A stretch of DNA of 42,724 nt from Pseudomonadota bacterium (GCA_918234285.1 CAKJXZ020000063.1:1-42724), one strand, 5' to 3'; shown: positions 8,201-42,724, counted from the first letter of the stretch. The notes: generated from the letters alone by a model not told the origin. Numbers and translations: made by a program.

Positions 8201-9534
8201 AAGGTAATGAAGCCCAGCTTAAATCCGATTTGGCTGACATTAGAGAGTTTTATAAAGCACACGGCATTGATTTTCCGGAAGAACGTGCGTTGGTAATGCT
8301 GGCTGACGGCGGTACCAATACCAACACCAATACCGTTAACTATACGCCGCACGGCAATGTTCATACACACGGTAACAATTTGGTGATGACACACGATTGG
8401 GCTGATACCAAAGGGCTGAATCATTCGATTGTTGATGCTTTGAACATTCCGAGAGGTCCTGATGGTCACCTGATGATGAATATGGATGCGCATAATGCGA
8501 TTATGAAAGTAAATCCGTTCGTCAGTGCCCATAATGGCATCGGTTATGTACCGAACACCGAAACTTACGGCTCGGGTATTCCGTTTAATGCCTCAAGAGA
8601 CGGAGCTAATATTCCGATAGAGGATTTGAGCGGCGGTAAAGAGTTTGGTACTTACATTAATCATGGTGGTGTCGGCGAATGGCAACATACTCCGGCAATT
8701 GATCGTACAGTAACGACAACAACACACTACTATGGCAATATCATGGCGACATTCGGCACATTCTTTAAACCGCTGACCAAGCGTACTTTCAAGATGGGGA
8801 GTGCGTTGGCAGATAAGATTGTCGGTGTATTCAAGAAAAAGCCGATTCCTGTTCCGGTTCCTGATCCGGACCCTAAACCGAAACCGGAGCCGATTCCTGA
8901 TCCGATTCCCGATCCGATTCCTGATCCGAAACCGGAGCCGATACCTGATCCGAAACCGCAACCGGAAAAAGTGGATATTACCAAAGATATGATTATGGAT
9001 GAGTATCAAATTATCTATGGTGATGATCCGCGCTCTAAGTTTGAGTTTGATGGCAAGCGTGATAAAAAAGTCGCAGCCGATCCGGAGAAGAACGCACAGT
9101 ACAAGGATTACGAAAAGCGTGTACTGGCAGAATACGAAGAAACCGGCAAGGGTAAGACTTTGGAAGAGTTCCTGAGCCAGCGCCGCAATGACTATAAAAC
9201 AGCCGTAAGCGATAATTTGTCGGCATATCTGAGCAGTGCGGAAGCGCAGAAGGCACAAAAGGAAGTGCTGAGCGTTAACGGCCAAATACCGGATACCAAC
9301 AAAGTACGTATTGACTTTATGAAAAATCCGGTTACGCATCCGGTAACGGCGGCGGCACGCCAGAACTTCCACGAAAGCAAGGTTGGCGAACCGGGCAAGT
9401 GGACGTTCAAAGGATTTATCCAACATGCCGTCGGATATCTGCAACGCTCGTCCGAAAACAAGCAGGCACGCGATCCGTCCAAAACAACGATGGTAAGCCA
9501 TGCTCGTATGAATGAGAGTGGCAGAGGTAAATAA
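5275..9534 (+). CDS. Large hypothetical protein (1419 aa) with Pro-rich linkers and a Gly/Ala-rich hydrophobic block
   Basis: Long ORF with its own promoter, RBS and terminator. KPQPAPQP and PDPKPEPIPDP repeats, several Gly-rich hydrophobic helices at ~aa 760-925, no signal peptide. Confidence 0.9.
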   Translation: MAIYNNFSDVADRADFKDFIRDKFGITDVSQIADVEQTALLMSFKSHTNDLSDADIDFLEEIRQANNKDDMEELTDVELGSVRDFDQLTIDEQIYISVKNYDAKDKGVTIDQIRDNLIKRGLENIEKEQAATEFNDKDAVYDAFHQLATEVQNGGIGDGAGQVKPHEISDFIAKKESYLEKHPEEKEEVNGQLGKFLNNQDQEKMFYGNELYTVDDGFRKTYQQAELDYADLLMGKDHPSPEGFDLEHIFDNVDDVKPQPAPQPDTKPQPAPVNDDKQPKPITVGAIPDKDKENDNVNITPKPQPQPEPHLQPVATEYEIVTEEYRKLSLNGDKNDAMMDLLRIGVLQNMNKVENVDLKKLSEQEAIEILHDTLPKLSNKELKEMESKVTDKILEADPQTKQSELLGMVPPLVLAEKYEELSAVVNKTNDGPEHDEALEKLNKVGDRIDSLASQLLTKKIDRDLWFNDYTNIADIHYGYEKMFAAREKDLIELAKEGNQSADQRVGIMRDGMKLLNEEVAKYDERMNLSGVDKDSADDLNKRFDSVKPRIDGVELDPETLKLVSHYKFRDEQGQIEPQFELPDGTRSDTYAQGAKIIEGSKLDSMVKMAKQDILLESLGADENALTDENLKREVNERLPFKLFEIDAETKGLDLANRLKQDAPIMAKDEFTNSDHYLKFLNELRQSPKVCDNGVYEVARDNMVEKNRAFTQRLAQKIDSQDNPILFKVMDSVKDFDKRANDRNANGKVSRKEIWKNIGKRALLGGGIAFATSFALSTGAAALAADASLTASTMGMNKFAGAILGTGLGIGAMALHVKNWRKSQKKQGKPAGLKAFLKNPQNLMSVATSALGGFATGALLTGNPAMAQLAGYGAIAMGAINGTTTNYAQIKKAGGNNFDAIAGGLLVGGATIGGGFLGREASHLAIDAFNKLMPDNRVFQDQHTTKTRIQEAKDEFVFNDKEAVVKGSQNTLDNFYKGNEAQLKSDLADIREFYKAHGIDFPEERALVMLADGGTNTNTNTVNYTPHGNVHTHGNNLVMTHDWADTKGLNHSIVDALNIPRGPDGHLMMNMDAHNAIMKVNPFVSAHNGIGYVPNTETYGSGIPFNASRDGANIPIEDLSGGKEFGTYINHGGVGEWQHTPAIDRTVTTTTHYYGNIMATFGTFFKPLTKRTFKMGSALADKIVGVFKKKPIPVPVPDPDPKPKPEPIPDPIPDPIPDPKPEPIPDPKPQPEKVDITKDMIMDEYQIIYGDDPRSKFEFDGKRDKKVAADPEKNAQYKDYEKRVLAEYEETGKGKTLEEFLSQRRNDYKTAVSDNLSAYLSSAEAQKAQKEVLSVNGQIPDTNKVRIDFMKNPVTHPVTAAARQNFHESKVGEPGKWTFKGFIQHAVGYLQRSSENKQARDPSKTTMVSHARMNESGRGK
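8842..8966 (+). repeat. Coding Pro-rich tandem repeat (PDPI/PDPKPEP)
   Basis: Repeated ccgattcctgatccg units. Confidence 0.8.
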
Positions 9535-20563: not shown

Positions 20564-21907
20564 TTAAGCACATTTATTGATACAATCAAGCATAATTTTT
20601 GCTTGTTCCGCGGCAATTTCGGCATTTTCATCTTCGATTTTAAGTCGCAGCACCGGTTCCGTGCCCGATTTGCGAATAATCAGCGAGCCGTGTCCGTTTA
20701 AATTGGCATTGACTTCATCAATACATTTTTTGACTTCGGCATTATCTAAAATTTTGCCGATAATTTCTTTGTTTTCAAAGCGCAGGTTATGGGCCTGAGT
20801 CGGGAATGGTTGAAATACCGGAAAGATTTCGCTGACTTTTTTACCGCTTTCTTTAATACCCAAACAAACTACGATTGCCGCCAACATGGCATCACCGGTG
20901 CGAGAATAATCACTCAACACCATGTGGCCGGATTCTTCACCGCCGAGATTACTGCCGACTTCGCGCATTTTTTCGATAACATAGCGTTCACCGACGGCCG
21001 AAGCATAATGTTCCAAACCCAGCGAGCGGATATATTTACCGAGTCCCATGTTGGAATAAAGGGTGGAAACAACCGCATTACCTTTCAATAGATTGTGTTC
21101 TTTAAGATATTTGGCTAAATAGGCAATAATTTGATCACCGTTCAAGCGTTGTCCGTTTTCGTCGCAGATAATGATTCTGTCGCCGTCGCCGTCAACCGCC
21201 ACACCGAGCATACAGCCGTTTTCTGTTACGGTTTTTGCCAGATTCTCGGTATGCTGTGAGCCGCAATTTTCGTTGATGTTGTAGCCGTCCGGAGTATCGG
21301 ATAAGCTGATAACATCGGCGCCGAGGTATTTGAACACATACGGTAAAATATCGGAAAAGGCACCGTTGGCCGAATCAAGTGCGATTTTCATTCCGTGCAG
21401 GGCATCGGCACCGGCCAGGGAGTTAACCGCATCAAAATAATCATCGATTCCGCATTCTGCCGGAATAATATTGCCGATTTTCTGCGGGTCGTAATCCGGT
21501 GTTGCCGTTTCCTGCATCAGTGCTTCCACTTTTGCCGTATCAACATCGGAAAACTTATCGCCGTCGCAGTTGATGAGCTTGATACCGTTATCTTTATACG
21601 GATTATGTGAAGCCGTAATCATAATGCTCATATCAACTTCAAATTCCGGCGTCAGAGTAGTACACAAAGGTGTCGGAATAACTCCCAAATCGAGGACGTC
21701 AACACCTTGTGCCGCAAAACCGGCGGCAAGCGCGCTGAAAATCATCGGGCTCGAAACACGGGTATCGCGAGCAACAGCCACGCGATGGCGAGTATTACAA
21801 AAATGCCGTCCCAACACATTACCCAACTTTAAACAAAAATCAACCGTCAGCGGATAAGTGTTGGCTACTCCGCGCATGCCGTCCGTCCCGAAAAGTTTAT
21901 TAGCCAT
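20564..21907 (-). CDS. glmM: Phosphoglucosamine mutase
   Basis: FGTDGMRG, ITASHNP, DGDGDR, GGEESGH and RKSGTEP. Confidence 0.93.
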   Translation of the reverse strand: MANKLFGTDGMRGVANTYPLTVDFCLKLGNVLGRHFCNTRHRVAVARDTRVSSPMIFSALAAGFAAQGVDVLDLGVIPTPLCTTLTPEFEVDMSIMITASHNPYKDNGIKLINCDGDKFSDVDTAKVEALMQETATPDYDPQKIGNIIPAECGIDDYFDAVNSLAGADALHGMKIALDSANGAFSDILPYVFKYLGADVISLSDTPDGYNINENCGSQHTENLAKTVTENGCMLGVAVDGDGDRIIICDENGQRLNGDQIIAYLAKYLKEHNLLKGNAVVSTLYSNMGLGKYIRSLGLEHYASAVGERYVIEKMREVGSNLGGEESGHMVLSDYSRTGDAMLAAIVVCLGIKESGKKVSEIFPVFQPFPTQAHNLRFENKEIIGKILDNAEVKKCIDEVNANLNGHGSLIIRKSGTEPVLRLKIEDENAEIAAEQAKIMLDCINKCA

Positions 21908-21981: not shown

Positions 21982-22605
21982 TTAGAATACGTAACGTAAG
22001 CCGCCATAAATTTCGTGTGCTTTAACATCCATTTTGTGGATGGAGCCCATATCATAATAACGGTAGCCGGCATCAATATTGAATTTGTTGGTAACCTTCA
22101 AAGTCAAACCGCCGCCGACAGACCAGGTAAACTTCGTCGGAGTGTTATTATAACCGTCGGTCAAATTATCAACGGTCGTTTGTCCGCCGTAAGTCGAAAT
22201 CATCTTGTCGTGATACTTCATTTTGGTAAAGCCGATACCGGCGCCTACATACGGAGACCACCAGTTATACGGCAGGAAGTCAACGAAATGGTTCCACATA
22301 ACCGAATAAGTTTGGAAATCAGCTTCGGAAGTTACTCCGCCGTCATTAATTGACCATTCGTCTTTATCACGCCAAACATATTCGAGTTCGGTACGATAAT
22401 AGTTATAACGGTAACCCAAAGCACCGCTCATAGTATACAACCATGAATCCAAACCATTCATATCCATGTGGCTCTTTTTGGAATAAGTGTGCTTAACACC
22501 GCCGGCACGAATGCCGACATATAAGCCGTTGCAGTCAGCCATTGCTTCTTGGGCGGCAAAAATCCCCAAAACCAAAGCTGAAGTTGCCAATAACAATTTT
22601 TTCAT
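21982..22605 (-). CDS. 8-stranded outer-membrane beta-barrel (Omp25/opacity-porin-like)
   Basis: Signal peptide ending AMA, PYVGAGIG, IDAGYRY.D.G and terminal GLRYVF. RBS AAGGAG before the ATG at 22605. Confidence 0.88.
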   Translation of the reverse strand: MKKLLLATSALVLGIFAAQEAMADCNGLYVGIRAGGVKHTYSKKSHMDMNGLDSWLYTMSGALGYRYNYYRTELEYVWRDKDEWSINDGGVTSEADFQTYSVMWNHFVDFLPYNWWSPYVGAGIGFTKMKYHDKMISTYGGQTTVDNLTDGYNNTPTKFTWSVGGGLTLKVTNKFNIDAGYRYYDMGSIHKMDVKAHEIYGGLRYVF

Positions 22606-22658
22606 CAGTAAAGCTCCTTTCATACAGTTATTCTGTGCATAAATCTAACCGATAATGC

Positions 22659-22673: not shown

Positions 22674-22733
22674 AAGTTGTGAAAAGGCTTAAAAAACATT
22701 GATTTTAAGATAAAATCGGGTTATCTCTTTTAG

Positions 22734-23139
22734 GAAGGCAATCGGATAGCTGCGTCTCGGAAAGGAAAATCCGAAGATGAGGAAAGTCCGGGCTTCACGG
22801 AAACAAGATACCGGATAACGTCCGGCTGGAGCAATCCACGGGAAAGCGCCGCAGAAAATTACCGCCGCGTACATCGCGGTAAGGTTGAAAAGGCGAGGTA
22901 AGAGCTCACCGCGTATGCAGTAATGCGTACGGCAAGGCAAGCCCTATCTGATGTAAGACCAAATTAGGAGGGTTTGATGTTTTTGCATTGAATCACACGG
23001 GGAGTTTCCGCCCCGCTCCAGAGGTAGGTCGCACCAACCAAGCGGAGACGTTTGGTGTAGATGAATAGCTATCGCACGAAATCTTTGCCGTTTACGACAA
23101 AGCAAATTGTGTACAGAACTCGGCTTACAGATTGCCTTC
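22734..23139 (+). ncRNA. rnpB: RNase P RNA (type A)
   Basis: GAGGAAAGTCCGGGC, GGAAAGCGCCGCAGAAA, AGATGAAT and ACAGAACTCGGCTTA conserved regions. P1 helix gaaggcaatc/gattgccttc. Confidence 0.97.
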
Positions 23140-23163
23140 AAAAAAATTTATTGGGAGAGGAAA

Positions 23164-24021
23164 ATGCCGCAAAAAACATTATCGCGTGAAGTTGAAATAA
23201 CCGGAATCGGGTTGCACAGCGGTTGTGAAAGTAAGCTTAAATTTAAACCGGCTTCGGCTGATACGGGGATTGTTTTTGTACGTTCCGATTTGGCCGATAA
23301 TAATCGTTTTCCGGCACTGTATTCGGGGGTGGTCGATACGCGCAATTGCACTTGTTTGGGTAATGCCTCGGGGCAGATTGTCAGCACCATCGAGCATATT
23401 ATGGCAACGTTGGCAATTTTGCAAATCGATAACACCGAAATTGAGGTGAGTGGTCCGGAAGTGCCGATTATGGACGGCAGTGCGAAAGTGTTTTATGAAA
23501 CATTACAAAAAGTGCCGCTGCTGGAACAAAATGCGCCAAAGAAATATTTGCGGATTAAAAAAACGGTAGAGTTTAAAGACGATAAAGGCAATTATGTCGT
23601 TTTGCACCCGTCCGATGCGCTGAAAGTGCATTTTACCATTGATTTTCCGTCAAAAATTGTCGGGCATCAGGAGTTTGACAGTCGAATAACCGAAGATGTT
23701 TTTGCGCAAAAGATTGCTCCGTCACGGACATTCTGCGAAAAATATCAGGTGGACTATCTGCAGTCAATCGGTTTGATTAAAGGCGGTAGTTTAGAAAATG
23801 CCGTGGTTTTAGACGGCGAAACGATTTTAAATGAGGGCGGTTTCAGAGTTGATAATGAGTGTGTCAACCATAAAACTCTGGATTGTATCGGCGATATGCT
23901 GACTTCGGGTTATGCAATTACGGCGGAAGTCGAAGCATTTCACAGCGGACACTTTCACAATAACGAAGTTTTGAAAAAATTATTTGCGAATGCGGAAAAT
24001 TATGAAATAGTTGAGGATTAA
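23164..24021 (+). CDS. lpxC: UDP-3-O-acyl-GlcNAc deacetylase
   Basis: QKTL...GIGLHSG, TIEH, EVPIMDGSA, RTF, GGSLENAVV and HKTLD. Probable start is the ATG at 23164 after RBS GAGG. Confidence 0.95.
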   Translation: MPQKTLSREVEITGIGLHSGCESKLKFKPASADTGIVFVRSDLADNNRFPALYSGVVDTRNCTCLGNASGQIVSTIEHIMATLAILQIDNTEIEVSGPEVPIMDGSAKVFYETLQKVPLLEQNAPKKYLRIKKTVEFKDDKGNYVVLHPSDALKVHFTIDFPSKIVGHQEFDSRITEDVFAQKIAPSRTFCEKYQVDYLQSIGLIKGGSLENAVVLDGETILNEGGFRVDNECVNHKTLDCIGDMLTSGYAITAEVEAFHSGHFHNNEVLKKLFANAENYEIVED

Positions 24022-24022
24022 A

Positions 24023-25147
24023 ATGCAGAAAAAATACGGAATATTACTCGGAATATTAATGTTGAGCGGTTGTGCTTCGGATATTGATATGGATTCGATG
24101 TCGGCCGAAGATTTATATAATCTGGCTTATGAAAATTTAGGCAAGACCAAATATGACAAAGCTGCGGAAATATTCGAAAAGGTTGAAACGGATCACCCGT
24201 ATTCAGGCTGGGCGGTGAAGTCTAAGTTAATGGGTGCATTTGCTCACTATAAAGATGGAAAATACGATGACGCGATTATGTCAATCGATCGTTTTATCAA
24301 ATATCATCCGGGCAACAAGGATGTTCCGTATGCACTGTATTTGAAGGGTATGTGCTATTATGACCAGATTTCATCGGCAGATAAAGATCAGGGTGATACC
24401 GCTATGGCTGCCGATACTTTCGGGCGTTTAATCGCACTGTATCCGGACAGCAAATATGCCCAAGATGCCATGGGTAAAATGAACCTGACCGAGGATTATA
24501 AGGCCGGACAGGAAATGATTATTGCCCGTTATTATCTGAACGAAGGTAACTATTTGTCGGCACTCAGTCGTTTTAATGTAATTCTTGAAGAATATCAGAC
24601 CACTATTCAAATTGAAGAAGCACTGTATCGCGAAGTTGAAATTTATGCAATTTTGGGACTTAACAGTTATGCCGACGGATATTATAAAATTTTGCAAAAG
24701 AATTATCCGGATGGAAAATGGACGGCCAAAGCAGCTAAAATTATGGATAAAATCGGTAAGGATAAGCAATCGGGGGTAACCTCTTTGGCAACGGATATCA
24801 AGACCGAAAAAGCGGTTGAAAAGACCGAAGAAAAAGCGGAAGAAAAGAAAGGCTGGTTCAGCGGTTGGTTCGGCTCCGATAAAAAATCTGCCGAGCCGGA
24901 AGAAGTAACCGAGGCTAAAGAAGCGGTTGCCGAAACCGAAGAAAAAACGGAAGAAAAGAAAGGCTGGTTCAGCGGTTGGTTCGGCTCCGATAAAAAATCT
25001 GCCGAGCCGGAAGAAGTAGCCGCGGCCAAAGAAGAGGCCAAAGCGGTTGCTGTGGAAACCGAGGAAAAGGCAGAGGAGAAAAAAGGCTGGTTTAGCGGAT
25101 TGTTCAGCGGCGGAACTTTGGTAGACAGCGGGGAAGGTGCCGAATAA
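24023..25147 (+). CDS. bamD: BamD lipoprotein with a C-terminal repeat extension
   Basis: LSGC lipobox, HPYS.W, RFIKYHP...VPYALYLKG and IARYY. Position lpxC-bamD-recN. Confidence 0.93.
   Translation: MQKKYGILLGILMLSGCASDIDMDSMSAEDLYNLAYENLGKTKYDKAAEIFEKVETDHPYSGWAVKSKLMGAFAHYKDGKYDDAIMSIDRFIKYHPGNKDVPYALYLKGMCYYDQISSADKDQGDTAMAADTFGRLIALYPDSKYAQDAMGKMNLTEDYKAGQEMIIARYYLNEGNYLSALSRFNVILEEYQTTIQIEEALYREVEIYAILGLNSYADGYYKILQKNYPDGKWTAKAAKIMDKIGKDKQSGVTSLATDIKTEKAVEKTEEKAEEKKGWFSGWFGSDKKSAEPEEVTEAKEAVAETEEKTEEKKGWFSGWFGSDKKSAEPEEVAAAKEEAKAVAVETEEKAEEKKGWFSGLFSGGTLVDSGEGAE
24811..25110 (+). repeat. Coding tandem repeat, 3x EEKKGWFSG(W/L)F
   Basis: ggctgg anchors at 24851, 24962 and 25085 (periods 111 and 123 bp). 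The first two units are nearly identical in DNA. Confidence 0.9.
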
Positions 25148-26814
25148 TGCTGAAGTCCTTATCAATTAGAAATGTTGTTTTGATTGATAAGTTAGACTTG
25201 GACTTATCTTCCGGTTTTACGGTTTTGAGCGGTGAAACCGGTGCCGGTAAGTCAATTTTGCTGGATTCTCTGGGGCTGGTTCTGGGGCGTCGCGCCGAAG
25301 CTTCGATGATACGCCACGGTTGCGATAAACTCAGTGTCAGCGCCGTGTTCGAATGTCATAATCCCAACGAAGCTTTGCAAAAATTATGTGAAGAACACGA
25401 TTTGGAATACGATAGCGAAATAATCATCAGCCGCACGCTTTCCGCAGACGGACGCGGTAAAATATTTTTCAATGATTATCCGATAACGCAACGTCTGCTC
25501 AAAGAAATAGGTAATTGTCTGGTTGAAGTGCACGGGCAATTTGATAATCAGGGCTTACTTAATGCGGAAACTCATCTGAGTGTGTTGGATGCGTACGGAA
25601 ATTATACCGAAACACTTGATGATGTGCGTCAAGCATACAATACCTACAAAACCGCGCAACATCTGCGACAACAGGCAGAAGATGAACTGGCGGCAGTGCA
25701 GACAGAGGAGGAAAACTTAACCCACTGGATTAAGGAATTTGCCCAAGTAAAGCCGCAAATCGGTGAGTTGGCGGAGTTGGAACAAAAGCGGCGCTATATG
25801 ATGAATGCCGAAAAGATCGCCGACGGTTTGCAAGCAGCACATAATTCGTTGCACCAGCAAAGCGCCGGAGTGCGCGAGTCTTTGCGACAGGCACAGGCGG
25901 CAATCGCACGTGTCAATGCCGTTACCGACGAAAAATATGCCGGTATCTATGAGATGCTGGATACGGCATTGGTCAATGTTGAGGAGGTCGATACGGAAAT
26001 TGACGGGGCTTTAAACGAAATCGACGTCAATCAAAATGATGCCGATGCGTTGGAAGAGCGCCTGTTTATGCTTAAGGATTTAGCACGCAAACACCATGTT
26101 ACGGTTGATGAGTTGCCGCAAGTGTGGCAGCAGATGGAAGATAAAATCGCACACTTGGAACATGGTCGCGATGATTTGGAAGTTTTACGCAAAAACGAAA
26201 CGGCGGCTTGGAGTGCGTATGTGAAAATTGCGCGTGAATTGCACGAACTGCGGTTGGCGGCGGCACAAAAGCTCGATGCCGGAGTTATGGCAGAGTTGCC
26301 GGCGCTTAAAATGGAAAAAGCACAGTTCAAAACCCAGATTATGGTCAAAGAAGAAAATCGCTGGAACGAAAGCGGCGGTGATGAAGTGTGTTTTCTGGTT
26401 TCCACTAATGCGGGGACACCGCTCGGTAATTTGAGTAAGATAGCTTCCGGCGGAGAATTGGCACGTTTTATGTTGGCACTTAAAGTTAACTTGGGGCAAG
26501 TCGGAGCGGTCGAAACCATGATTTTTGATGAGGTTGATACCGGCATCGGTGGGGCAACGGCACAGGCGGTCGGCGAAAAGTTAGCTGCGCTCGGTCAAAA
26601 CAAACAGGTGATGGTTGTAACCCATTCGCCGCAGGTAGCCGCATTCGGCAGCAACCACTTTAAGGTGGAAAAAACAAGTGTTGACGGAATAACTTTAACA
26701 AACGTTCGCTTACTTTCGGCCACCGAAAAGCGCGAAGAAATCGCCCGTATGCTTTCCGGCGAAGTAATCAGTGACGAAGCCAGAGCTGCGGCCAAAGTTT
26801 TGATAGGGGCATAA
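25147..26814 (+). CDS. recN: DNA repair protein RecN
   Basis: GETGAGKS, HGQ, ASGGELAR, IFDEVDTG and VTHSPQVAA. Confidence 0.97.
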   Translation: MLKSLSIRNVVLIDKLDLDLSSGFTVLSGETGAGKSILLDSLGLVLGRRAEASMIRHGCDKLSVSAVFECHNPNEALQKLCEEHDLEYDSEIIISRTLSADGRGKIFFNDYPITQRLLKEIGNCLVEVHGQFDNQGLLNAETHLSVLDAYGNYTETLDDVRQAYNTYKTAQHLRQQAEDELAAVQTEEENLTHWIKEFAQVKPQIGELAELEQKRRYMMNAEKIADGLQAAHNSLHQQSAGVRESLRQAQAAIARVNAVTDEKYAGIYEMLDTALVNVEEVDTEIDGALNEIDVNQNDADALEERLFMLKDLARKHHVTVDELPQVWQQMEDKIAHLEHGRDDLEVLRKNETAAWSAYVKIARELHELRLAAAQKLDAGVMAELPALKMEKAQFKTQIMVKEENRWNESGGDEVCFLVSTNAGTPLGNLSKIASGGELARFMLALKVNLGQVGAVETMIFDEVDTGIGGATAQAVGEKLAALGQNKQVMVVTHSPQVAAFGSNHFKVEKTSVDGITLTNVRLLSATEKREEIARMLSGEVISDEARAAAKVLIGA

Positions 26815-28620
26815 ATGGCGGGAATCAAACACGGCACCGAAGTTATCAAAAACTATGTCAAAATTGCTCCGGTCAATCCCGGAGTTTATCGTATGCTCGA
26901 TGCCGATAATAAGGTTCTGTATGTCGGCAAGGCTAAAAATATTAAAAAGCGCATTACGGCATACACGCATTTCGAGCGGCTTCCCGACCACATTAAACGC
27001 ATGGTGGCGGAAGTTGAAAAAATGGAGTTTATCATCGTCGAAAACGAAGCCAAGGCTTTGTTGATGGAAAACGACTTAATCAAGCGTTTGGAGCCTAAAT
27101 ATAATATTTTACTTAAAGATGATAAAACTTTTCCGCACCTGATGATAAATCTGGCAGAAGATTTTCCTGCTTTGCGTAAGAGCCGCGGTACCCGTCGCGA
27201 CAAGTGTAAATATTTCGGGCCGTTTGCCAGCGCAACCGCGGTCAATAATGTGATGGATATAATCCAAAAAACGTTTCGTTTGCGCTCGTGCCGCGACAGC
27301 GTTTTTAACAATCGCGAACGTCCGTGTATGCTGTATCAAATCAAGCGCTGCAGTGCTCCCTGCGTCGGCAAAATCAGCCGCGAAGAATATCATAAAACGG
27401 TTGATGAAGTGGTGGCGTTTTTGGAAGGTCGCAACAGTGAATTAAAAGAAAAATGGTCGGCGCAAATGCAGGCGGCGAGCGCTGCCGAGGACTTTGAAAC
27501 CGCGCTGATTTTGCGCGACCGGATTCGCACTCTCAGCAGCATTCAGGGCGGATATAACGTTGAATATGCCGATATTATGTCGGCGGATGCGGTGGCGGCG
27601 GTCAAGCATAAAAATATGGTTTGCATTCAGGTGTTCTTTATCCGTTCGGGGCAAAATTGCGGCAATATCCCGTATTTTCCGAAACAGGCGCGCGAGATGA
27701 GCGAGGAAGAAATTTTGGAAGGTTTTTTGAGCACTTTTTATGCCGAACATTTGCCGCCGAAAGAAATTTATGTGTCGCACGATTTGGAAAATAAGGAGTT
27801 TTTAGAGGAGGCTATCGGCACCAGAATCAATCGTTATCAGAAAGGCAATAAAGCCAAGTTGATTGAGCGAGCCAAAGAAAATGCGGTGGCGGCAATCGAA
27901 CGCAAGTTGGCGGAGAGTGCAACGGTTGAGGCTAATTTGACGGAGATGCAAAAGTATTTTGATTTGCCGCGGATTCCGCAACGTATAGAAGTATACGACA
28001 ACTCGCACAATCAGGGCAGCTATGCGGTGGGGGCAATGATTGTGGCAACTCCGGAAGGATTCGATAAAAAATCATATCGCACTTTTAACATAAAATATAC
28101 CGATAACACCCATGACGACTTTGCCATGATGAAGGAAGTTTTATTGCGCCGCTTTGAAAGGATGAGTACGGAAAATCGCCCGGACGTTATATTGCTCGAC
28201 GGTGGTTTGGGGCAGTTGCACGCAGTACACGAAGCTTTGAGCGGTTATGATTTGTCGGGAATTACGATTATAGCTATTTCCAAAGGGCCGGAGCGTAATG
28301 CCGGTAAGGAATTTTATCATATTTTGGGACGAGAAAGTTTTGATTTACCTTTTCAATCGTCGATAGCGTTTTATATGCAAAATATCCGGGATGAGGCGCA
28401 CCGTTTTGCCATCGGAACGCATCGTAAAAAACGCGCCAAATCAATGTTTAAGTCGGCAATAGACGAGATTGAGGGAATAGGGGCTAAACGCAAGCGCGAT
28501 TTGCTCAATTTTTTCGGTTCGGTTGAGCAAATTAAAGCCGCATCTGTTTCTGATTTGCAAAAAGTCGACGGAATCAGTAAAAAAACGGCGGAAAACATAT
28601 ATAAATACTTCCATAATTAA
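26815..28620 (+). CDS. uvrC: Excinuclease ABC subunit C
   Basis: PGVYRM..VLYVGKAKN (GIY-YIG), Cys cluster, RIEVYDNSH, LDGGLGQ, RDEAHRFA and HhH. Confidence 0.97.
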   Translation: MAGIKHGTEVIKNYVKIAPVNPGVYRMLDADNKVLYVGKAKNIKKRITAYTHFERLPDHIKRMVAEVEKMEFIIVENEAKALLMENDLIKRLEPKYNILLKDDKTFPHLMINLAEDFPALRKSRGTRRDKCKYFGPFASATAVNNVMDIIQKTFRLRSCRDSVFNNRERPCMLYQIKRCSAPCVGKISREEYHKTVDEVVAFLEGRNSELKEKWSAQMQAASAAEDFETALILRDRIRTLSSIQGGYNVEYADIMSADAVAAVKHKNMVCIQVFFIRSGQNCGNIPYFPKQAREMSEEEILEGFLSTFYAEHLPPKEIYVSHDLENKEFLEEAIGTRINRYQKGNKAKLIERAKENAVAAIERKLAESATVEANLTEMQKYFDLPRIPQRIEVYDNSHNQGSYAVGAMIVATPEGFDKKSYRTFNIKYTDNTHDDFAMMKEVLLRRFERMSTENRPDVILLDGGLGQLHAVHEALSGYDLSGITIIAISKGPERNAGKEFYHILGRESFDLPFQSSIAFYMQNIRDEAHRFAIGTHRKKRAKSMFKSAIDEIEGIGAKRKRDLLNFFGSVEQIKAASVSDLQKVDGISKKTAENIYKYFHN

Positions 28621-32676: not shown

Positions 32677-34097
<1,421 letters not shown>

Positions 34098-34098
<1 letters not shown>

Positions 34099-34502
34099 TG
34101 AAATTAACGGTGTTCACGCCTTTGGGTGAATTGCTAAAGTGCAAAATCAAAAAAATCACCGTTGAAACCTTAAACGGGCACTACACATTATTGCCGAAAC
34201 ACGTTGATTTTGTGGCGGCAATGAGCGAAAACATCGTTACTTATACCACCGAAGAAAAACAACAAAAATATATGGCTTGCCATCGGGGAATTGTGGTGAA
34301 GAAGGGTGATGCCGTTACCATAACCGTGCAAAACGCGGTTGTCGGCGACACTCTTGACGAACTGACCGAGATAATCAATCGCGACTTTAAGCAAACCGAT
34401 GAGCAACGCAAAGAATTCAATAGTGCTATGGCTCGTTTGGAATTGGGAATAATCCGCGGTTTCGGGCAGCTGAGCAAAGGAGACTTCAATGGCGGAATTT
34501 GA
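34098..34502 (+). CDS. atpC: N-type ATPase epsilon subunit
   Basis: L.VFTP, G..TLLPKHVDFV and MARLE..IIR.F. Position after atpD. Confidence 0.88.
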
Positions 34503-34830
34503 AAAAGTGCAGAGCAGCAAAGTGCGGGATGAGCTGGTTTATAAAGCCACACTGATGAAGCAACGCCCGGAGCGGCATTGGCATTCCAATTTCGGAATGA
34601 TAGCTTCTCTCGGCGGAGTGATTATTATTCCGATTCTTTTGGGAATATGGCTGGGAGGATATTTGGATGAATCCTGGCCGCAACGCTTCTCGTGGCGTTT
34701 GTCGCTGTTGTTTGTAGGCTTTGTGTGGGGAGCATTCAATGCTTATATGTGGGTGGCGATGGAAAATCGTAAAATTGCCGAGTTGGACGCCAAAATGGAC
34801 GCGCTGAAAAAAGGAGAGAAAAATGAATAG
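34489..34830 (+). CDS. atpQ: N-ATPase AtpQ (AtpZ/gene-1-like) membrane protein
   Basis: FGMIASLGG.IIIP.LLG.WLG.YLD, 2 TM. Position in the operon. Confidence 0.85.
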   Translation: MAEFEKVQSSKVRDELVYKATLMKQRPERHWHSNFGMIASLGGVIIIPILLGIWLGGYLDESWPQRFSWRLSLLFVGFVWGAFNAYMWVAMENRKIAELDAKMDALKKGEKNE

Positions 34831-35161
34831 CGGATATTTTGAACTGATGTGGCAACAAGCGGAAGAATGGCGGTTGATTATCGCATTTATCTGCGGCATT
34901 GCGGTCGGATTGGTATATTTTTACAGTTTGCGCTGGAGTATAAATCACTATGGCGAGCTTGAGCATAAATTTAAGATTTATGCCCTGACGGCATTGTGCC
35001 GGATTGCACTGTTTTTCGGAGTTTTGATTTTAATCGGACACCGCAACATTGCCGTTATCCTGTTATATATCTTGGCATTTTTCCTGACTAAAGTGGTGAT
35101 AATTTGGTTGGAAAAACGCAGATACGTTGCCGTGGATAACAAAGACGAGGTGAAAAAGTAA
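34823..35161 (+). CDS. atpR: N-ATPase-specific subunit AtpR
   Basis: G..YFYSLRWS..., CRIAL, 3 TM. Located between atpQ and atpB. Confidence 0.82.
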   Translation: MNSGYFELMWQQAEEWRLIIAFICGIAVGLVYFYSLRWSINHYGELEHKFKIYALTALCRIALFFGVLILIGHRNIAVILLYILAFFLTKVVIIWLEKRRYVAVDNKDEVKK

Positions 35162-35901
35162 TGGAGTGCCGAGCTGATTTTTCGCAGTGGTTTGATTTGC
35201 CGTGGCAGGACAAGGCCATCGGCCTGGAGAATTTTGATTCGATTAAGTTAATCGATTGCGGTAGTTTCGGCATTAATGTCACGATTTTCAATTCTTGGCT
35301 GGTAATAGCGTTGATTACGTTGGTTTCGTGGTTGGTTACGCGCCGTATCGGCACCGGTAAAAACGTATCAAAAATGCAGATTGTTTTGGAAACATTAGTG
35401 TTATGGATGCAAAAAGAAGCCAAAGAGACCAGCGGTTCCGGCAGCCGGAAGTATTTTTCTATGGCGCTGGGGCTGTTTTGCTTTATCATTACAGCCAACT
35501 TACTGACCTTTATTCCGTGGTTTCGGCCGCCGACTGCGTCTTTGAGCACAACCATGGCTCTGGCTCTGATTGTGTTTATGGCCATACCGTATTTTTCAAT
35601 CAAGAATGCGGGGATTAGAGGCTACTTGAAAAAATTTATTGAACCGGTGCCGCTGTTGTTACCGATGAACATATTCAGCGAAGTGTTTTCGGTTTTTGCC
35701 ATGGGCTTGCGTTTGTTCGGCAATATGCTGAGCGGTGTAATGTTTGCCGGCATTCTGAGCGCGTTTATACCGTTTATCGCGCCGCTGACCATGCAAACGC
35801 TCGGCTTGTTGACCGGTTCAATTCAAGCATACATTTTTGCTTTGTTGGCACTTGTATATACCTCAAGTGTTAAAAAGGAAGAAGAATTATCAATAACTTA
35901 A
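35161..35901 (+). CDS. atpB: Fo subunit a
   Basis: PPTASLSTT.ALA, LRLFGN (essential Arg) and IQAYIF. Confidence 0.95.
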   Translation: MECRADFSQWFDLPWQDKAIGLENFDSIKLIDCGSFGINVTIFNSWLVIALITLVSWLVTRRIGTGKNVSKMQIVLETLVLWMQKEAKETSGSGSRKYFSMALGLFCFIITANLLTFIPWFRPPTASLSTTMALALIVFMAIPYFSIKNAGIRGYLKKFIEPVPLLLPMNIFSEVFSVFAMGLRLFGNMLSGVMFAGILSAFIPFIAPLTMQTLGLLTGSIQAYIFALLALVYTSSVKKEEELSIT

Positions 35902-35917
35902 CTTAAAGGAGAAAACA

Positions 35918-36187
35918 ATGGATTCTTATGCAATTATCGGTGCGGTTTCGGTTTTGGGAGCCTGTTTGTGTATGGGTATCGGCAGTATCGGCTCGGCACT
36001 CGGCGAAGGGCAAGCGGCAGCTGCGGCCTTAACCGCAATGGCACAACAACCGGATGAGGCCGGACGGATTCGTTCCACCATGTTCGTTACGTTGGCAATG
36101 CTTGAAACAACTGCGCTGTATGCGTTGTTGATTGCATTTTTAACGCTGTATGCCAATCCGTTTTGGAATTATGCCATCAACCAATAA
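35918..36187 (+). CDS. atpE: Fo subunit c with two Glu and Na+-type ligands
   Basis: GSIGSALGEG, AQQPD loop and LETTALY. Confidence 0.95.
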   Translation: MDSYAIIGAVSVLGACLCMGIGSIGSALGEGQAAAAALTAMAQQPDEAGRIRSTMFVTLAMLETTALYALLIAFLTLYANPFWNYAINQ

Positions 36188-36203
36188 AAATACGTGAGGA
36201 CCA

Positions 36204-36986
36204 ATGGAAATTGACCTGGTTACATTAATTGCACAAATCATCAACTTACTGATTTTGTTGTTTTTGCTCAGAAAGTTTTTATATCTTCCGGTTTTGAAGG
36301 CGGTGGAGGCAAGGCAAAAAGCCGTTGCCGATGAGTTGCAGGCGGCGGAAGACGCGCAAAAGCATGCGCAAATTACCATAAAAGCGTGTGAAAAACAAAC
36401 TCAGAAACTTGAGGCGCAAAAACAGGAAATTTTGCAAAAAGCACATCAGGAGGCCGATGATTTGTCGGCGGAATTGCTTGTACAAGCTCAGAAAGAATAT
36501 GCGGTTGCGCAAAAACAATGGCAACGCAGAATGGTTGCGGAACAAGACAGTTTTGTGCATACAATGCAGAAGGCAGTTACCTTACAGTTTAATCACTTTG
36601 CCCAAAAAGCCCTAAAACAAATTGCCAACGTTGATATCAATGATTTGGCGGTTGATTGTTTATTAAAACAACTGGATAATCTGTCACCGGAACAGCAGGC
36701 CGAATATGCCGCGGATTTTCACTCCAAAAAGCGTATAGAGATTCAATCTGCGGCGGTATTGAGTGAAAAAAATCAAAAAAAATTAGAAAAATATTTGCGC
36801 GAAAAATGGCAGCTTTTGCCGCAAACCCAAATTGTTTTTACGGTTAACGATGAGCTGATTTGCGGTTTGAGCCTGATGGCCGAAGAACAGTTGATTTCAT
36901 GGAATTTAGAAGAGTATATGCGTCAGTTCGGGCATAATCTGAAACAGGAAGCAACACAATTTTTAAACAGAGGTAAAAATGATTGA
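36204..36986 (+). CDS. atpF: Fo subunit b with a fused delta-like C-terminus
   Basis: TLIAQIIN.LIL.FLLRKFLY.PV, coiled coil, and ELICGL.L....ISWN C-terminal domain. No separate atpH. Confidence 0.9.
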   Translation: MEIDLVTLIAQIINLLILLFLLRKFLYLPVLKAVEARQKAVADELQAAEDAQKHAQITIKACEKQTQKLEAQKQEILQKAHQEADDLSAELLVQAQKEYAVAQKQWQRRMVAEQDSFVHTMQKAVTLQFNHFAQKALKQIANVDINDLAVDCLLKQLDNLSPEQQAEYAADFHSKKRIEIQSAAVLSEKNQKKLEKYLREKWQLLPQTQIVFTVNDELICGLSLMAEEQLISWNLEEYMRQFGHNLKQEATQFLNRGKND

Positions 36987-38481
36987 AGCAAAAAATATGT
37001 TGCAGGCTATTCAGCAAAGTATCGAAAAAACCGATATGGAGCTGAAAAAAGAAGAAGTAAGCACCGTGCAGTCGGTTTCGGCCGGCACGGCGATTGTCAG
37101 CGGTTTGGAAAACGCACAGATGGACGAGTTGCTGCAATTTCCTCACAACGTTTCGGGAATGGTGCAGACGCTTAATCGACAATCGGTCGGTGTGGTGTTT
37201 TTGGATGATCCGCAAAAAATAAAAGCCGGCGACCGCGTGGTACGTACCGGTCGCGTTTCCGATGTCCCGGTCAGCGAAAATCTGTTGGGACGGGTGATTA
37301 ATCCGTTGGGAGAGCCGTTGGACGGTAAGGGGGCTTACAGCTATGAAGAACGTCGCCCGCTCGAGGTTGAAGCAGTTCCGATTATGGATAGAGCGCCGGT
37401 CGATACTCCTCTGCAGACCGGAATTAAAGCCGTTGATGCTTTTACACCCATCGGGCGCGGGCAACGCGAACTGATTTTGGGTGACCGGCAAACCGGTAAA
37501 ACAGCCATTGCTTTGGATACGATTATCAATCAGAAAAACAGCGGCGTAATCAGCATTTATTGTGCCATAGGACAGCGTAATGCGGCGGTGGCTTCGGTAA
37601 TTGCCGATTTGCAAAAATACGACGTGATGGATAAAACAATCGTCGTTTCGGCCTCTGCCGACGATGAAGCCGGAATGCAATATATTGCTCCGTATGCAGC
37701 TACCACTATCGGTGAATATTTTATGCAGCGCGGCTATGATGTTTTGGTGGTGTATGATGACTTGACCAACCACGCCCGAGCCTATCGGCAAATGTCGCTG
37801 TTGTTGCGCCGTCCGCCGGGGCGTGAGGCTTTCCCGGGTGACATTTTCTACATTCACTCCCGTTTATTGGAAAGAGCAACTCATTTGCGGCCGGAAGCAG
37901 GCGGCGGTTCTTTGACCGCTTTGCCGATTGTTTCGACCGAAGCCGGCAATATTTCGGCTTATATTCCGACCAACATTATTTCGATTACCGACGGGCAGAT
38001 TTATTTGTCGGCGCAAATGTTTCAGAAGGGATTGATGCCGGCGATAGATACCGGAAAGTCGGTTTCACGCGTGGGTGGCGATGCGCAGTTGCCGGCCTAT
38101 AAGTCGGTGGTCGGACCGCTCAAACTGTTTTATGCGCAATTTGAGGAATTGGAGTCGTTTACCAAATTCGGCACTCAGTTGGATAAAGAAACTCAACAAA
38201 GAATTGCCCGCGGTCAGGCGGTGCGTGCGGTATTGCAACAACGGCGATATGCTTTGTTGACGGCGGCCGAGCAAATAGCAATTTTTGCCGCAACCAACGA
38301 CGGTATATTTGACGGATTGAATGTTGAGCAAACCAACCATGTTCAGGAAGTTATCTTGCAGGTGTTGCACAGTCGCTTCAAAAAGCTGATGCACGCCGTG
38401 GATAAACGCCATAAAATTTCAGATGCCGATTTAAATAATATGATACAAACTTTCAAATCTGTTTTGCAGGGCGAGGAATAA
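36979..38481 (+). CDS. atpA: N-type ATPase alpha subunit
   Basis: GDRQTGKT, LRRPPGREAFPGD and SITDGQI. Confidence 0.96.
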   Translation: MIEAKNMLQAIQQSIEKTDMELKKEEVSTVQSVSAGTAIVSGLENAQMDELLQFPHNVSGMVQTLNRQSVGVVFLDDPQKIKAGDRVVRTGRVSDVPVSENLLGRVINPLGEPLDGKGAYSYEERRPLEVEAVPIMDRAPVDTPLQTGIKAVDAFTPIGRGQRELILGDRQTGKTAIALDTIINQKNSGVISIYCAIGQRNAAVASVIADLQKYDVMDKTIVVSASADDEAGMQYIAPYAATTIGEYFMQRGYDVLVVYDDLTNHARAYRQMSLLLRRPPGREAFPGDIFYIHSRLLERATHLRPEAGGGSLTALPIVSTEAGNISAYIPTNIISITDGQIYLSAQMFQKGLMPAIDTGKSVSRVGGDAQLPAYKSVVGPLKLFYAQFEELESFTKFGTQLDKETQQRIARGQAVRAVLQQRRYALLTAAEQIAIFAATNDGIFDGLNVEQTNHVQEVILQVLHSRFKKLMHAVDKRHKISDADLNNMIQTFKSVLQGEE

Positions 38482-38486
38482 ACATT

Positions 38487-39365
38487 ATGCCGATTGAGAA
38501 ATTGCAACGAAAGATAAAAACCACCCAAGAATTGCGGGAAATTGTCAGCAATATGAAAACGCTGTCATCGGTGAGTATCTTGCAATATGATCAGGCTAAT
38601 ACGGTTTTGGAAAAATATCAGCGCAATTTACAGGATGCAATTCATGTGTTGGCACTGCATAACGGCATTCCGCTATCGGCCTCCGAGCAGCCGGCACACC
38701 CGCGCTATTTGTTTATTATCATCGGTTCGGATAACGGCATGGTCGGTCGTTTCAATCGCGATTTGACCGAGCAGGTGCAAAAGTTTATAAAAGCGGAAAA
38801 AATCGCTGCCGCCGATGCCTATTTTATTACCATCGGTAAAAGGTTATCTGCTTTGAGCGAACAGGCTGATTTCAACGTTTTAACCGGATATGCTACGTCA
38901 AATTCGGTAAAGGCGGTGGTGTCGTTGGCCGAAACAATAATTATGCGCCTGGAGCAGGCTATGCGTCGTCAGCGCGTAACCAATGTTTATACTTGCTTTC
39001 ACCGGCGCAACGGTAACAGCGTAAGCATTAATTTGCAAAGAATTTTGCCGGTGGATAAAGAAGGGTTGTTGAAGCTTAAGAAAAAAAGATGGGAAACAAA
39101 CAATATCCCGATGTTACCCGTAAATAAAGATAAAATGTTTGCGGCCTTGGTCGGAGAAATTTTGATGATTGCCTTATCTAAACAAATCAATGCTTCGCTG
39201 GCGGCCGAACATTATATTCGTATGACAAATATGCAAAATGCCGAGAAAAATATCGATGAGAGTCTGGAAGAACTCAATTTGGAATTTCAGCAGCAACGTC
39301 AGGAAGAAATCACCGGCGAGCTGATTGATGTTATTTCCGGAGCCAATGCCATGGCTGAAGCTTGA
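38487..39365 (+). CDS. atpG: N-type ATPase gamma subunit
   Basis: LQRKIKT..EL..IV..MK, GSDNGMVGRFN, E...RM..MQ.AEKNI and RQEEITGEL. Confidence 0.93.
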   Translation: MPIEKLQRKIKTTQELREIVSNMKTLSSVSILQYDQANTVLEKYQRNLQDAIHVLALHNGIPLSASEQPAHPRYLFIIIGSDNGMVGRFNRDLTEQVQKFIKAEKIAAADAYFITIGKRLSALSEQADFNVLTGYATSNSVKAVVSLAETIIMRLEQAMRRQRVTNVYTCFHRRNGNSVSINLQRILPVDKEGLLKLKKKRWETNNIPMLPVNKDKMFAALVGEILMIALSKQINASLAAEHYIRMTNMQNAEKNIDESLEELNLEFQQQRQEEITGELIDVISGANAMAEA

Positions 39366-41970: not shown

Positions 41971-42724
41971 TTATGAAGCAATCGGATTGCCGTTTTCATC
42001 AACATATTCCCACTCGTCGCTATCCGACGGCTCAATCGGATTGCCGTTTTCATCAACATATTCCCATTCATCATCATTCGATGCCGTAACCGGATTGCCG
42101 TTTTCATCAACATATTCCCATTCATCATCACCCGATGCCGTAACCGGATTGCCGTTTTCATCAACATATTCCCATTCATCATCATCTGATGCCGTAACCG
42201 GATTACCGTTTTCATCGACATATTCCCACTCATCGTCATCCGATGCCGTAACCGGATTGCCGTTTTCATCGACATACTCCCACTCGTCATCGGTTGTTGC
42301 GGTTTCACCGTTGTTATCCGTTGCAAAGGCATCTTCCAGGTCACCGAAGGCAGCTTCCAAACTGACCGGCGCTTTATCGTTGCCGGCGGCCAAAGACACC
42401 GGTGTCACGTCCAAGTCATCAAGCGAAACCGAATCGGTTGAGTTGATGGCCTCTTTAATTCTTTGCATGGCACTGTCATAACCCGGATTACTTACCTTTG
42501 CTTGCGGCGCCGGTTTGGCGTCCATACCGAATGCCGCGCTCAAATCATCAACCGGTTTGGTGGCCTTTGCTTGCGGTGCCGGCTTGGTTTCCATACCGAA
42601 TGCCGCAGCTATATCATCAGCCGGTTTGGCGGCCTTTGTTTGCGGTGCCGACTTGGTTTCCATACCGAATGCCGCAGCTATATCATCAGCCGGTTTAACG
42701 GCCTTTGCTTGCGGTGCCGGCTTG
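41971..42724 (-). CDS. Acidic low-complexity repeat protein, 5'-truncated by the window edge
   Basis: Frame is open from the edge (KPAPQAKAVKPADDIAAAFGM...). 23-aa repeats are followed by 6 DEWEYVDENGNP repeats with synonymous third-position variation. Confidence 0.88.
   Translation of the reverse strand, partial: KPAPQAKAVKPADDIAAAFGMETKSAPQTKAAKPADDIAAAFGMETKPAPQAKATKPVDDLSAAFGMDAKPAPQAKVSNPGYDSAMQRIKEAINSTDSVSLDDLDVTPVSLAAGNDKAPVSLEAAFGDLEDAFATDNNGETATTDDEWEYVDENGNPVTASDDDEWEYVDENGNPVTASDDDEWEYVDENGNPVTASGDDEWEYVDENGNPVTASNDDEWEYVDENGNPIEPSDSDEWEYVDENGNPIAS
41981..42291 (-). repeat. 51-bp coding tandem repeat x6 (one unit 54 bp)
   Basis: Recurring ccggattgccgttttcatcaacatattcccattcatcatc units. 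Confidence 0.95.
42497..42724 (-). repeat. 69-bp coding tandem repeat, >=3 copies, continuing past the edge
   Basis: ccataccgaatgccgc recurs at ~42522, ~42591 and ~42660. Confidence 0.9.

Follow-up and report, generated by a model that had tools for sequence, protein, structure and literature searches.

The canonical proteobacterial division and cell wall (dcw) cluster is flanked by the RNase P RNA gene rnpB on one side and by lpxC on the other. The cluster and both flanks were found on one contig in four of the eight relatives outside the family studied here (G013, G014, G016 and G017). In G014, G016 and G017, which belong to the same class, rnpB, mraZ, murE, murD, murC and lpxC follow in this order on one strand. 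The contig of G013, from a sister family of the same order, starts with an incomplete rnpB on the minus strand, and then carries mraZ-rsmH-ftsL-ftsI-murE-murF-mraY-ftsW-murG-murC-murB-ftsQ-ftsA-ftsZ-lpxC-bamD on the plus strand. The stretch analysed here (the window) is the entire contig C63 (42.7 kb; 42,724 nucleotides) of the genome G000, which is 2.005 Mb in size and rated 100% complete. A preliminary description of this DNA had taken it as its premise that rnpB and lpxC normally flank the dcw cluster; the premise holds in the four relatives, and the slot between the two genes is empty in G000. Peptidoglycan recycling is the other described system that bears on this genome. The available part of PMC3060825 reports that the Escherichia coli ligase Mpl accepts tri-, tetra- and pentapeptides and weakly L-Ala, and that multicopy mpl complements murC(ts). 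The import and release of tetrapeptides by AmpG and AmpD, and their trimming by LdcA, are described in the accessible parts of PMC13046382 and PMC9790009.

The rnpB-lpxC junction of the window is best read as a real and old rearrangement scar of nearly the whole family, and not as the footprint of a lost division and wall cluster (probability about 0.85). The dcw cluster of G000 has been moved and scattered, not lost, and the junction reflects a rearrangement of a known cluster that is specific to this lineage.

It had been proposed in the preliminary description that the dcw genes were lost, and with them FtsZ-based division and canonical peptidoglycan synthesis. A genome-wide search for the fts, mur, mreB and penicillin-binding protein (PBP) genes refutes this proposal, as the genes were found dispersed over other contigs. 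The ftsZ gene (TIGR00065, 410 bits) lies on C31 in a mraY-ftsW-murB-ftsQ-ftsA-ftsZ block (C31:10609-17604), and mraZ-rsmH-ftsL-ftsI are on C3, followed by pal and cpoB. The contig C11 carries murF (L006:9198-10523; TIGR01143, 358.9 bits against a cut-off of 288.6), and also ddl and ligA. The murG gene (NF009102, 415.8 bits) is located on C14 and murA on C65; C67 carries mreB (62% identity to E. coli MreB), mreC and a class B PBP (PBP2), and four PBPs are encoded in the whole genome. The genes and the flanks are thus the same as in the canonical cluster of the four relatives, and two stretches of it, mraZ-rsmH-ftsL-ftsI and mraY-ftsW-murB-ftsQ-ftsA-ftsZ, have stayed together as blocks in the same order; whereas G000 has no intact cluster, its genes being split over at least five contigs (C3, C11, C14, C22 and C31) with none between rnpB and lpxC, and murE, murD and murC are gone from the blocks. 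Elsewhere in its genome, G000 encodes FtsZ-based division, the MreB elongasome and the membrane part of peptidoglycan synthesis.

A deletion of the dcw cluster, which would leave a lipopolysaccharide (LPS)-bearing diderm without peptidoglycan synthesis and FtsZ that divides by a novel system, would agree with the absence of dcw genes from the whole contig (Pfam search of the window proteins) and with the failure to find canonical murC, murD and murE; to this extent the earlier claim of loss stands. However, mraZ, rsmH, the fts genes, mraY, murA, murB, murF, murG, ddl, mreB, mreC and the four PBP genes are open frames on other contigs, and FtsZ was found in all 74 family genomes of 90% completeness or more. 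The probability of such a deletion is practically nil.

Two observations concern the relocated genes themselves. The murG of G000 passes the NF009102 model and not TIGR01133, in contrast to the canonical cluster, and its product shares 25% identity with MurG of G013. The protein (C14, L043:7129-8511) has an N-terminal extension of about 100 residues, and the sister family has a MurG of the TIGR01133 type; judged from sequence comparison, the gene may be a replacement by a foreign copy. Directly 5' of the relocated murF on C11 (L006:7753-9195) is a gene for a monomeric [FeFe] hydrogenase (TIGR04105, 480 bits), with nrdR-nusB-def next, which points to an anaerobic, fermentative lifestyle.

The abutment of rnpB and lpxC, as first noticed, was borne out by comparison with related genomes. 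The order glmM-omp-rnpB-lpxC-bamD (omp, an outer-membrane β-barrel protein gene) is kept in all 12 genus genomes with rnpB, with LpxC identities of 66-89% (tblastn). These 12 are G000 and 11 of its 12 relatives; in the remaining one, G003 (83% complete), both rnpB and lpxC are missing. In the family, lpxC-bamD lies directly 3' of rnpB in 26 of the 29 genomes with rnpB, and in 21 of 23 genera; the exceptions are G079 (genus g25) and G022 and G023 (g11). The draft genome G000 consists of 71 contigs and its contamination is estimated at 2.58%, so that an artefact of assembly or binning that fused two unrelated pieces has to be considered. Such a fusion is exceedingly improbable, because 33 of 35 loci from separate genomes show the junction again, with a spacer of 10-33 nt (median over the 35 loci, 19 nt), and because the LpxC identity across these loci drops from 89% to 55%, as vertical descent predicts. 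Moreover, a 1734-nt contig of the run X3, from a different study, spans the junction (22883-23650) with two differences. The runs X5 and X6 contain pieces with 0-1 differences to the stretch, none of them bridging the junction. The runs containing the stretch are mostly animal-gut metagenomes.

The gene layouts in the family also indicate how the junction might have arisen. The mraZ-rsmH genes adjoin rnpB divergently in 12 family loci, 10 of which also have lpxC downstream of rnpB. A divergent rnpB/mraZ pair is present in G013 too, yet its lpxC follows ftsZ. In G075 and G044, mraZ-ftsI alone still adjoin rnpB. By synteny (tblastn), the slot held by mraZ in other family genera is taken by glmM-omp in this genus and in the genera g12, g14, g21 and g27, and by omp only in g20. 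These six genera group in the LpxC+BamD tree (SH-aLRT 93). The tree was built by a quick method from 29 selected rows and its backbone is unresolved, so the six changes of MurD/E state counted on it are an unreliable figure.

Ancestrally, the dcw cluster would have started with mraZ next to rnpB and ended with ftsZ followed by lpxC-bamD. In the family ancestor, lpxC would have come to lie 10-33 nt 3' of rnpB, either because the rnpB+dcw block was inverted or because lpxC-bamD-recN was translocated to equivalent effect. The outcome would be a divergent locus, in which mraZ, rsmH, ftsL and ftsI are read away from rnpB on one strand, and rnpB, lpxC and bamD follow each other on the opposite strand. 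Afterwards the dcw cluster would have fragmented, and in this genus the mraZ piece would have left as well, its slot being taken by glmM-omp. Since the family loci combine divergent mraZ-rsmH beside rnpB with lpxC after rnpB, they indicate an inversion or translocation and not the clean excision that was previously suggested. The inversion is the simplest path from the layout of G013; the translocation is equally possible. Some points weigh against this reconstruction: the two events are indistinguishable, the assemblies are fragmented and rnpB of G013 is truncated where its contig ends, and only mraZ-ftsI, not the full cluster, persist beside rnpB in the family. The junction is older than the losses of mur genes discussed below, because it is present in genera that retain murD and murE.

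The features around the junction in the window are as follows.

20564..21907, minus strand: glmM, phosphoglucosamine mutase family (Pfam PGM_PMM I-IV; tblastn synteny)
21982..22623, minus strand: omp, outer-membrane β-barrel protein, divergent from rnpB (Pfam OMP_b-brl, 1e-19; synteny)
22689..22716, plus strand: promoter-like site TTAAAA-16-TAAAAT, 18 nt 5' of rnpB (consensus scan, 9 of 12 matches)
22734..23143, plus strand: rnpB, RNase P RNA class A, full length (Rfam RF00010, 271.7 bits, E 9e-88, model positions 1-367)
23144..23163, plus strand: spacer of 20 nt, the junction, with Shine-Dalgarno-like GGGAGAGG and no terminator (from the sequence)
23164..24021, plus strand: lpxC, UDP-3-O-acyl-GlcNAc deacetylase (Pfam LpxC, 7.8e-96)
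24011..25147, plus strand: bamD, YfiO family lipoprotein (Pfam YfiO, 4.6e-48)
25147..26814, plus strand: recN, 555 aa (Pfam SMC_N and AAA_23)
26815..28620, plus strand: uvrC (Pfam UvrC_RNaseH_dom, GIY-YIG and UVR)

The RNase P RNA is the only RNA gene that Rfam finds in the window, far above the gathering score of 100; LpxC (PF03331) reaches 321.1 bits against a cut-off of 27 and covers positions 1-267 of the 268 of the profile. The recN gene was named from its domain make-up and position. It is followed by uvrC and not by ligA, which had been expected there and is located at L006:15336-17429 on C11. The same-strand abutment in the preliminary description is correct, whereas its figures (rnpB ending at 23139, lpxC 24 bp further) need revision, as Rfam places the end at 23143 and the gap is 20 nt. 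Its statement that neither a remnant frame nor a terminator separates the two genes was confirmed: no open reading frame and no plus-strand terminator-like site were found in a scan of the 20-nt spacer, which consists of an A-rich stretch followed by GGGAGAGG and then the lpxC ATG at 23164.

The genes lpxC-bamD-recN-uvrC are all on the plus strand in gapless succession, and they are most likely transcribed from the rnpB promoter, given that the spacer is too short for a promoter or a terminator, so that read-through from rnpB is expected. The operon would be read as one transcript, and the RNase P RNA would be cut from its 5' part. The site at 22689..22716 is a candidate promoter for rnpB, and by extension for lpxC. 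On the other side, co-transcription is inferred from spacing alone. The promoter-like sites are weak evidence, as two were found against 2.1 expected from shuffled sequences. The RNA run X15 contains 90-95% alike pieces of the conserved rnpB from relatives, which say nothing on co-transcription. With its very short conserved spacer, the locus offers a small case in which one can test whether a ribozyme gene stands at the head of an mRNA operon.

One part of the dcw cluster is really gone, namely canonical murC, murD and murE. The first hint came from a Mur_ligase_M search of the single genome, and it was confirmed by model searches across relatives and by tblastn. In the model searches, murE and murD were found over the cut-off in none of the 13 genus genomes, versus all eight relatives outside the family. 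In the family, murE was found in 38 and murD in 39 of 81 genomes, from the same genera; both were not found in 12 of the 23 sampled genera (g1, g12, g13, g14, g16, g20, g21, g22, g24, g27, g29 and g31). Canonical murC was over the cut-off in none of 60 family genomes from 15 genera, and is present in G013. A loss specific to this genus was thus ruled out, as canonical murC is missing family-wide and murD/murE in about half of the genera. No remnant of murD, murE or murI was detected in the whole of G000 by tblastn with MurD, MurE and MurI of G044 and G031 and with MurD and MurE of G013; the matches were cross-hits to murF and the MurC-like gene described below, and the controls MraY and FtsZ gave 303 and 431 bits. 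Mur-ligase domains number two in 34 of the 42 MurD-less genomes, three in 3, one in 2 and none in 3; whereas MurD-bearing genomes have 3-5.

The supply of the building blocks appears to be affected as well. The glutamate racemase gene murI was over the cut-off in 1 of 42 MurD-less versus 31 of 39 MurD-bearing genomes, though related genomes are not independent. No dapF was found in the five family genomes tested. The E. coli DapA, DapB and LysA gave no tblastn match in G000; the E. coli PurC control gave no match either, and these negatives lean on the positive E. coli controls MreB, DdlB and MurC. A FolC-like third Mur_ligase_M protein was also not seen in G000, and together with the unmatched PurC, DapA, DapB and LysA this suggests broad auxotrophy in a 2-Mb genome.

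The family as a whole forms a reductive series of four to five Mur ligases, then two, then none. The genomes G027 and G088 (both g13) and G083 (g29), which are 99%, 72% and 99% complete, have zero Mur_ligase_M domains, and so neither a MurC-like ligase nor MurF. These two genera keep FtsZ (403 bits in G027, 261 bits in G088, where it is cut by a contig end, and 397 bits in G083), LpxC and BamD, and rnpB-lpxC-bamD is present in G027 and G083. They may be wall-less, LPS-bearing alphaproteobacteria that divide with FtsZ. As FtsZ is found throughout the series, one can ask what roles FtsZ and LPS-envelope biogenesis take while a lineage abandons its wall.

G000 has a single MurC-family protein, a ligase of 454 aa encoded on C22. 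It scores 323.6 bits with the MurC model TIGR01082, below the cut-off of 335.1; whereas the true MurC of G013, G018 and G020 score 465-531 bits. With the Mpl model TIGR01081 it reaches 151.5 bits against a cut-off of 388.7. In a tree of 30 rows, the ligases of this type form their own clade of 23 rows (support 92/99) that includes the G000 protein, separate from the canonical MurC clade of E. coli, G013, G018 and G020 (support 98/98). The clade is also apart from E. coli Mpl, whose long branch has an uncertain position. None of the MurC-like rows in the alignment has the Mpl motif (S/T)AFFDKRSK (PMC3060825), which E. coli Mpl does have. An identification of the protein as Mpl was therefore rejected on score, motif and tree.

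The MurC-like ligase gene is part of a cassette, which comprises a divergent TetR gene, a gene for a secreted acidic protein, the ligase gene and ldcA, and which is kept through the family and in G013. The adjoining LdcA is an LD-carboxypeptidase over the Pfam cut-offs for Peptidase_S66 (96.4 bits) and S66C (114.9 bits); with 141.9 bits it stays below the cut-off of 378 of the NCBIfam equivalog NF008424. G015 too has the MurC-like-LdcA pair, and both G013 and G015 have a true MurC besides. The linkage to LdcA is only suggestive that the ligase attaches L-Ala-D-Glu-mDAP (mDAP, meso-diaminopimelate) to UDP-MurNAc. The secreted protein, P0121 (G000:C22, L007:8389-9690; G013 L044:3058-3897), is always encoded between the TetR gene and the ligase gene. 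A long acidic stretch of low complexity is followed in it by a C-terminal domain of about 170 aa that is conserved; it has no Pfam match, and the protein atlas returned unnamed look-alike clusters only.

A loop of the ligase occurs in two forms. The rows compared were selected, one per genus plus all four two-copy genomes. The ancestral loop QPHGFxPMRxMG, where MurC has QPHRxxR, occurs in all seven sampled MurD/E-less genera and in the G013 copy, as well as in the LdcA-linked second copies of g10 and g15; the G015 copy is a variant. A derived loop, Q(S/P)H..SA(R/Q)(N/T)TG, is confined to MurD/E-bearing genera, where 8 of the 10 genomes sampled have it. All copies with this loop fall into one clade, which indicates a single event. 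The genera g10 and g15 (L051-L058), which bear MurD/E, have two MurC-like genes, of which the TetR-linked copy carries the derived loop. Their second, LdcA-linked copies group 100/100 with MurD/E-less genera, the g15 copy with this genus and the g10 copy with g14. This suggests a transfer of the ligase-LdcA pair within the family, if the grouping reflects the history of the genes.

The genome G000 also encodes AmpG (C10:40262-41464; TIGR00901, 447.1 bits against a cut-off of 350), an AmpD-type Amidase_2 enzyme and one OppA/YejA-type binding protein. AmpG, the AmpD-type amidase, LdcA, the MurC-like ligase, Ddl and MurF are exactly the known set for a tripeptide bypass. AmpG would import muropeptides of neighbouring bacteria, and the AmpD-type amidase and LdcA would free and trim the peptide. 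The MurC-like ligase would then put the salvaged L-Ala-D-Glu-mDAP tripeptide on the UDP-MurNAc made by the cell; Ddl and MurF would finish the pentapeptide, and MraY, MurG, SEDS proteins and PBPs would take over. Recycling of the own wall gives no net growth, and so the peptide must come from other bacteria, a supply which fits the gut habitat. Obligate salvage of peptidoglycan stem peptides from neighbouring bacteria is thus a slightly favoured prediction for this genus, drawn from its gene content. The odds appear about even for the wider proposal that obligate stem-peptide auxotrophy extends over a large share of the family, that a third MurC/Mpl branch attaches the peptide, and that lpxC is a 3' extension of the RNase P RNA transcript. 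Many near-complete genomes share one pattern: they are without the peptide-building half of the cytoplasmic pathway but retain its sugar half, together with the membrane steps, PBPs and recycling enzymes.

Several results weigh against stem-peptide salvage. The MurC-like ligase lacks the Mpl motif and scores higher with the murC model than with the mpl model. The family genera that retain MurD and MurE have this ligase type alone, and therefore it must be able to add L-Ala there. Besides, the absences rest on draft metagenome-assembled genomes, though many of them are 99-100% complete. The second of these results speaks at the same time for the main rival explanation, in which the precursors are made de novo: a divergent MurC would add L-Ala, and non-homologous enzymes would add D-Glu and diaminopimelate (DAP), or the stem peptide would be an unusual one. 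The score just below the murC cut-off agrees with this, and a gene for an ATP-grasp 'alpha-L-glutamate ligase-like' protein lies near mraZ (L042:15664-16620). Nevertheless de novo synthesis is unlikely. The searches for glutamate racemase, DapA, DapB, DapF and LysA were negative, which means that even the building blocks are lacking, and the ligase is fixed beside LdcA, whose sole known role is the trimming of recycled tetrapeptides. In addition, orthologues of the ligase coexist with true MurC in G013 and G015, and the ancestral loop is kept in all seven sampled MurD/E-less genera, the derived one being limited to genera with MurD/E.

It might also be supposed that the remaining wall genes are decaying relics and that the genus has no sacculus, a state which the family can reach, as the sibling genera g13 and g29 without any Mur ligase demonstrate. 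This is less probable still, because MurF, the MurC-like ligase, LdcA, MurA, MurG, the PBPs and Ddl are encoded by intact frames in every genus genome examined. Their identities are 66-94% with no internal stops reported, which fits purifying selection.

The names on close homologues place the organism among uncultured Alphaproteobacteria. The family has small genomes (1.2-2.0 Mb), and its DNA is found in animal-gut metagenomes. If stem-peptide salvage is true, it would explain why these gut alphaproteobacteria are known here from metagenome assemblies alone, and it hints at muropeptides or tripeptides as a culture supplement. It would also define a new ligase clade of the MurC/Mpl family with a directly testable choice of substrate.

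Other features of the window lie apart from these genes. The plus strand carries an N-type ATPase operon at 32680-39365, with genes for beta, epsilon, ATPase_gene1 (AtpI-like), AtpR, a, b/delta-like, alpha and gamma; on C31, an ordinary F-type ATP synthase is encoded by a second operon, convergent to ftsZ (L004:17681-19494; L005:4506-7607). An open frame of 1419 aa at 5275-9534 (plus strand) has no significant Pfam family, its sole match being a sub-threshold acidic repeat. At the contig end, the open-ended frame at 41971-42723 (minus strand) has short repeated matches to SSSPR-51, MucBP and WW-like motifs, and may be the truncated gene of a repetitive surface protein.

In a full-text literature search, no account was found of stem-peptide-dependent bacteria that have neither MurC nor MurD nor MurE; this does not prove that none exists. 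The predicted route can be compared with the described recycling systems. The recycling route of E. coli, AmpG-AmpD-LdcA-Mpl-MurF (Mengin-Lecreulx 1996 and Templin 1999, as cited in the available parts of PMC13046382 and PMC9790009), has the same set of functions as encoded in G000, and the same logic, in which a ready-made tripeptide is joined to UDP-MurNAc and MurC, MurD and MurE are bypassed. In E. coli this route is dispensable and parallel to de novo synthesis; whereas here it would be the sole route, as the de novo ligases and the supply of D-Glu and DAP were not found. Moreover, the ligase of G000 is not an orthologue of Mpl, from which it differs in motif, model score and clade. Caulobacter and Agrobacterium are also Alphaproteobacteria with AmpD- and NagZ-type recycling (PMC13046382, PMC9790009, in the parts available). 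According to the same partial texts, Caulobacter has no homologue of LdcA or Mpl (PMC13046382), and the cytoplasm of A. tumefaciens was shown to be without LdcA activity (PMC9790009); whereas the family studied here has the LdcA-linked MurC-like ligase together with AmpG. Another comparison is offered by the MurNAc auxotrophy of Tannerella forsythia, which the accessible parts of PMC5388701 and PMC7670621 describe as a gut/oral anaerobe with a partial cytoplasmic pathway, thought to live on muropeptides of its neighbours via AmpG. T. forsythia is there reported to lack the sugar steps MurA and MurB; whereas this lineage keeps them and is without MurC, MurD, MurE, MurI and the DAP pathway, its dependence being read from genomes alone. 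If correct, stem-peptide salvage would be a new variant of the known recycling route, and the peptide-side counterpart of the MurNAc auxotrophy of Tannerella.

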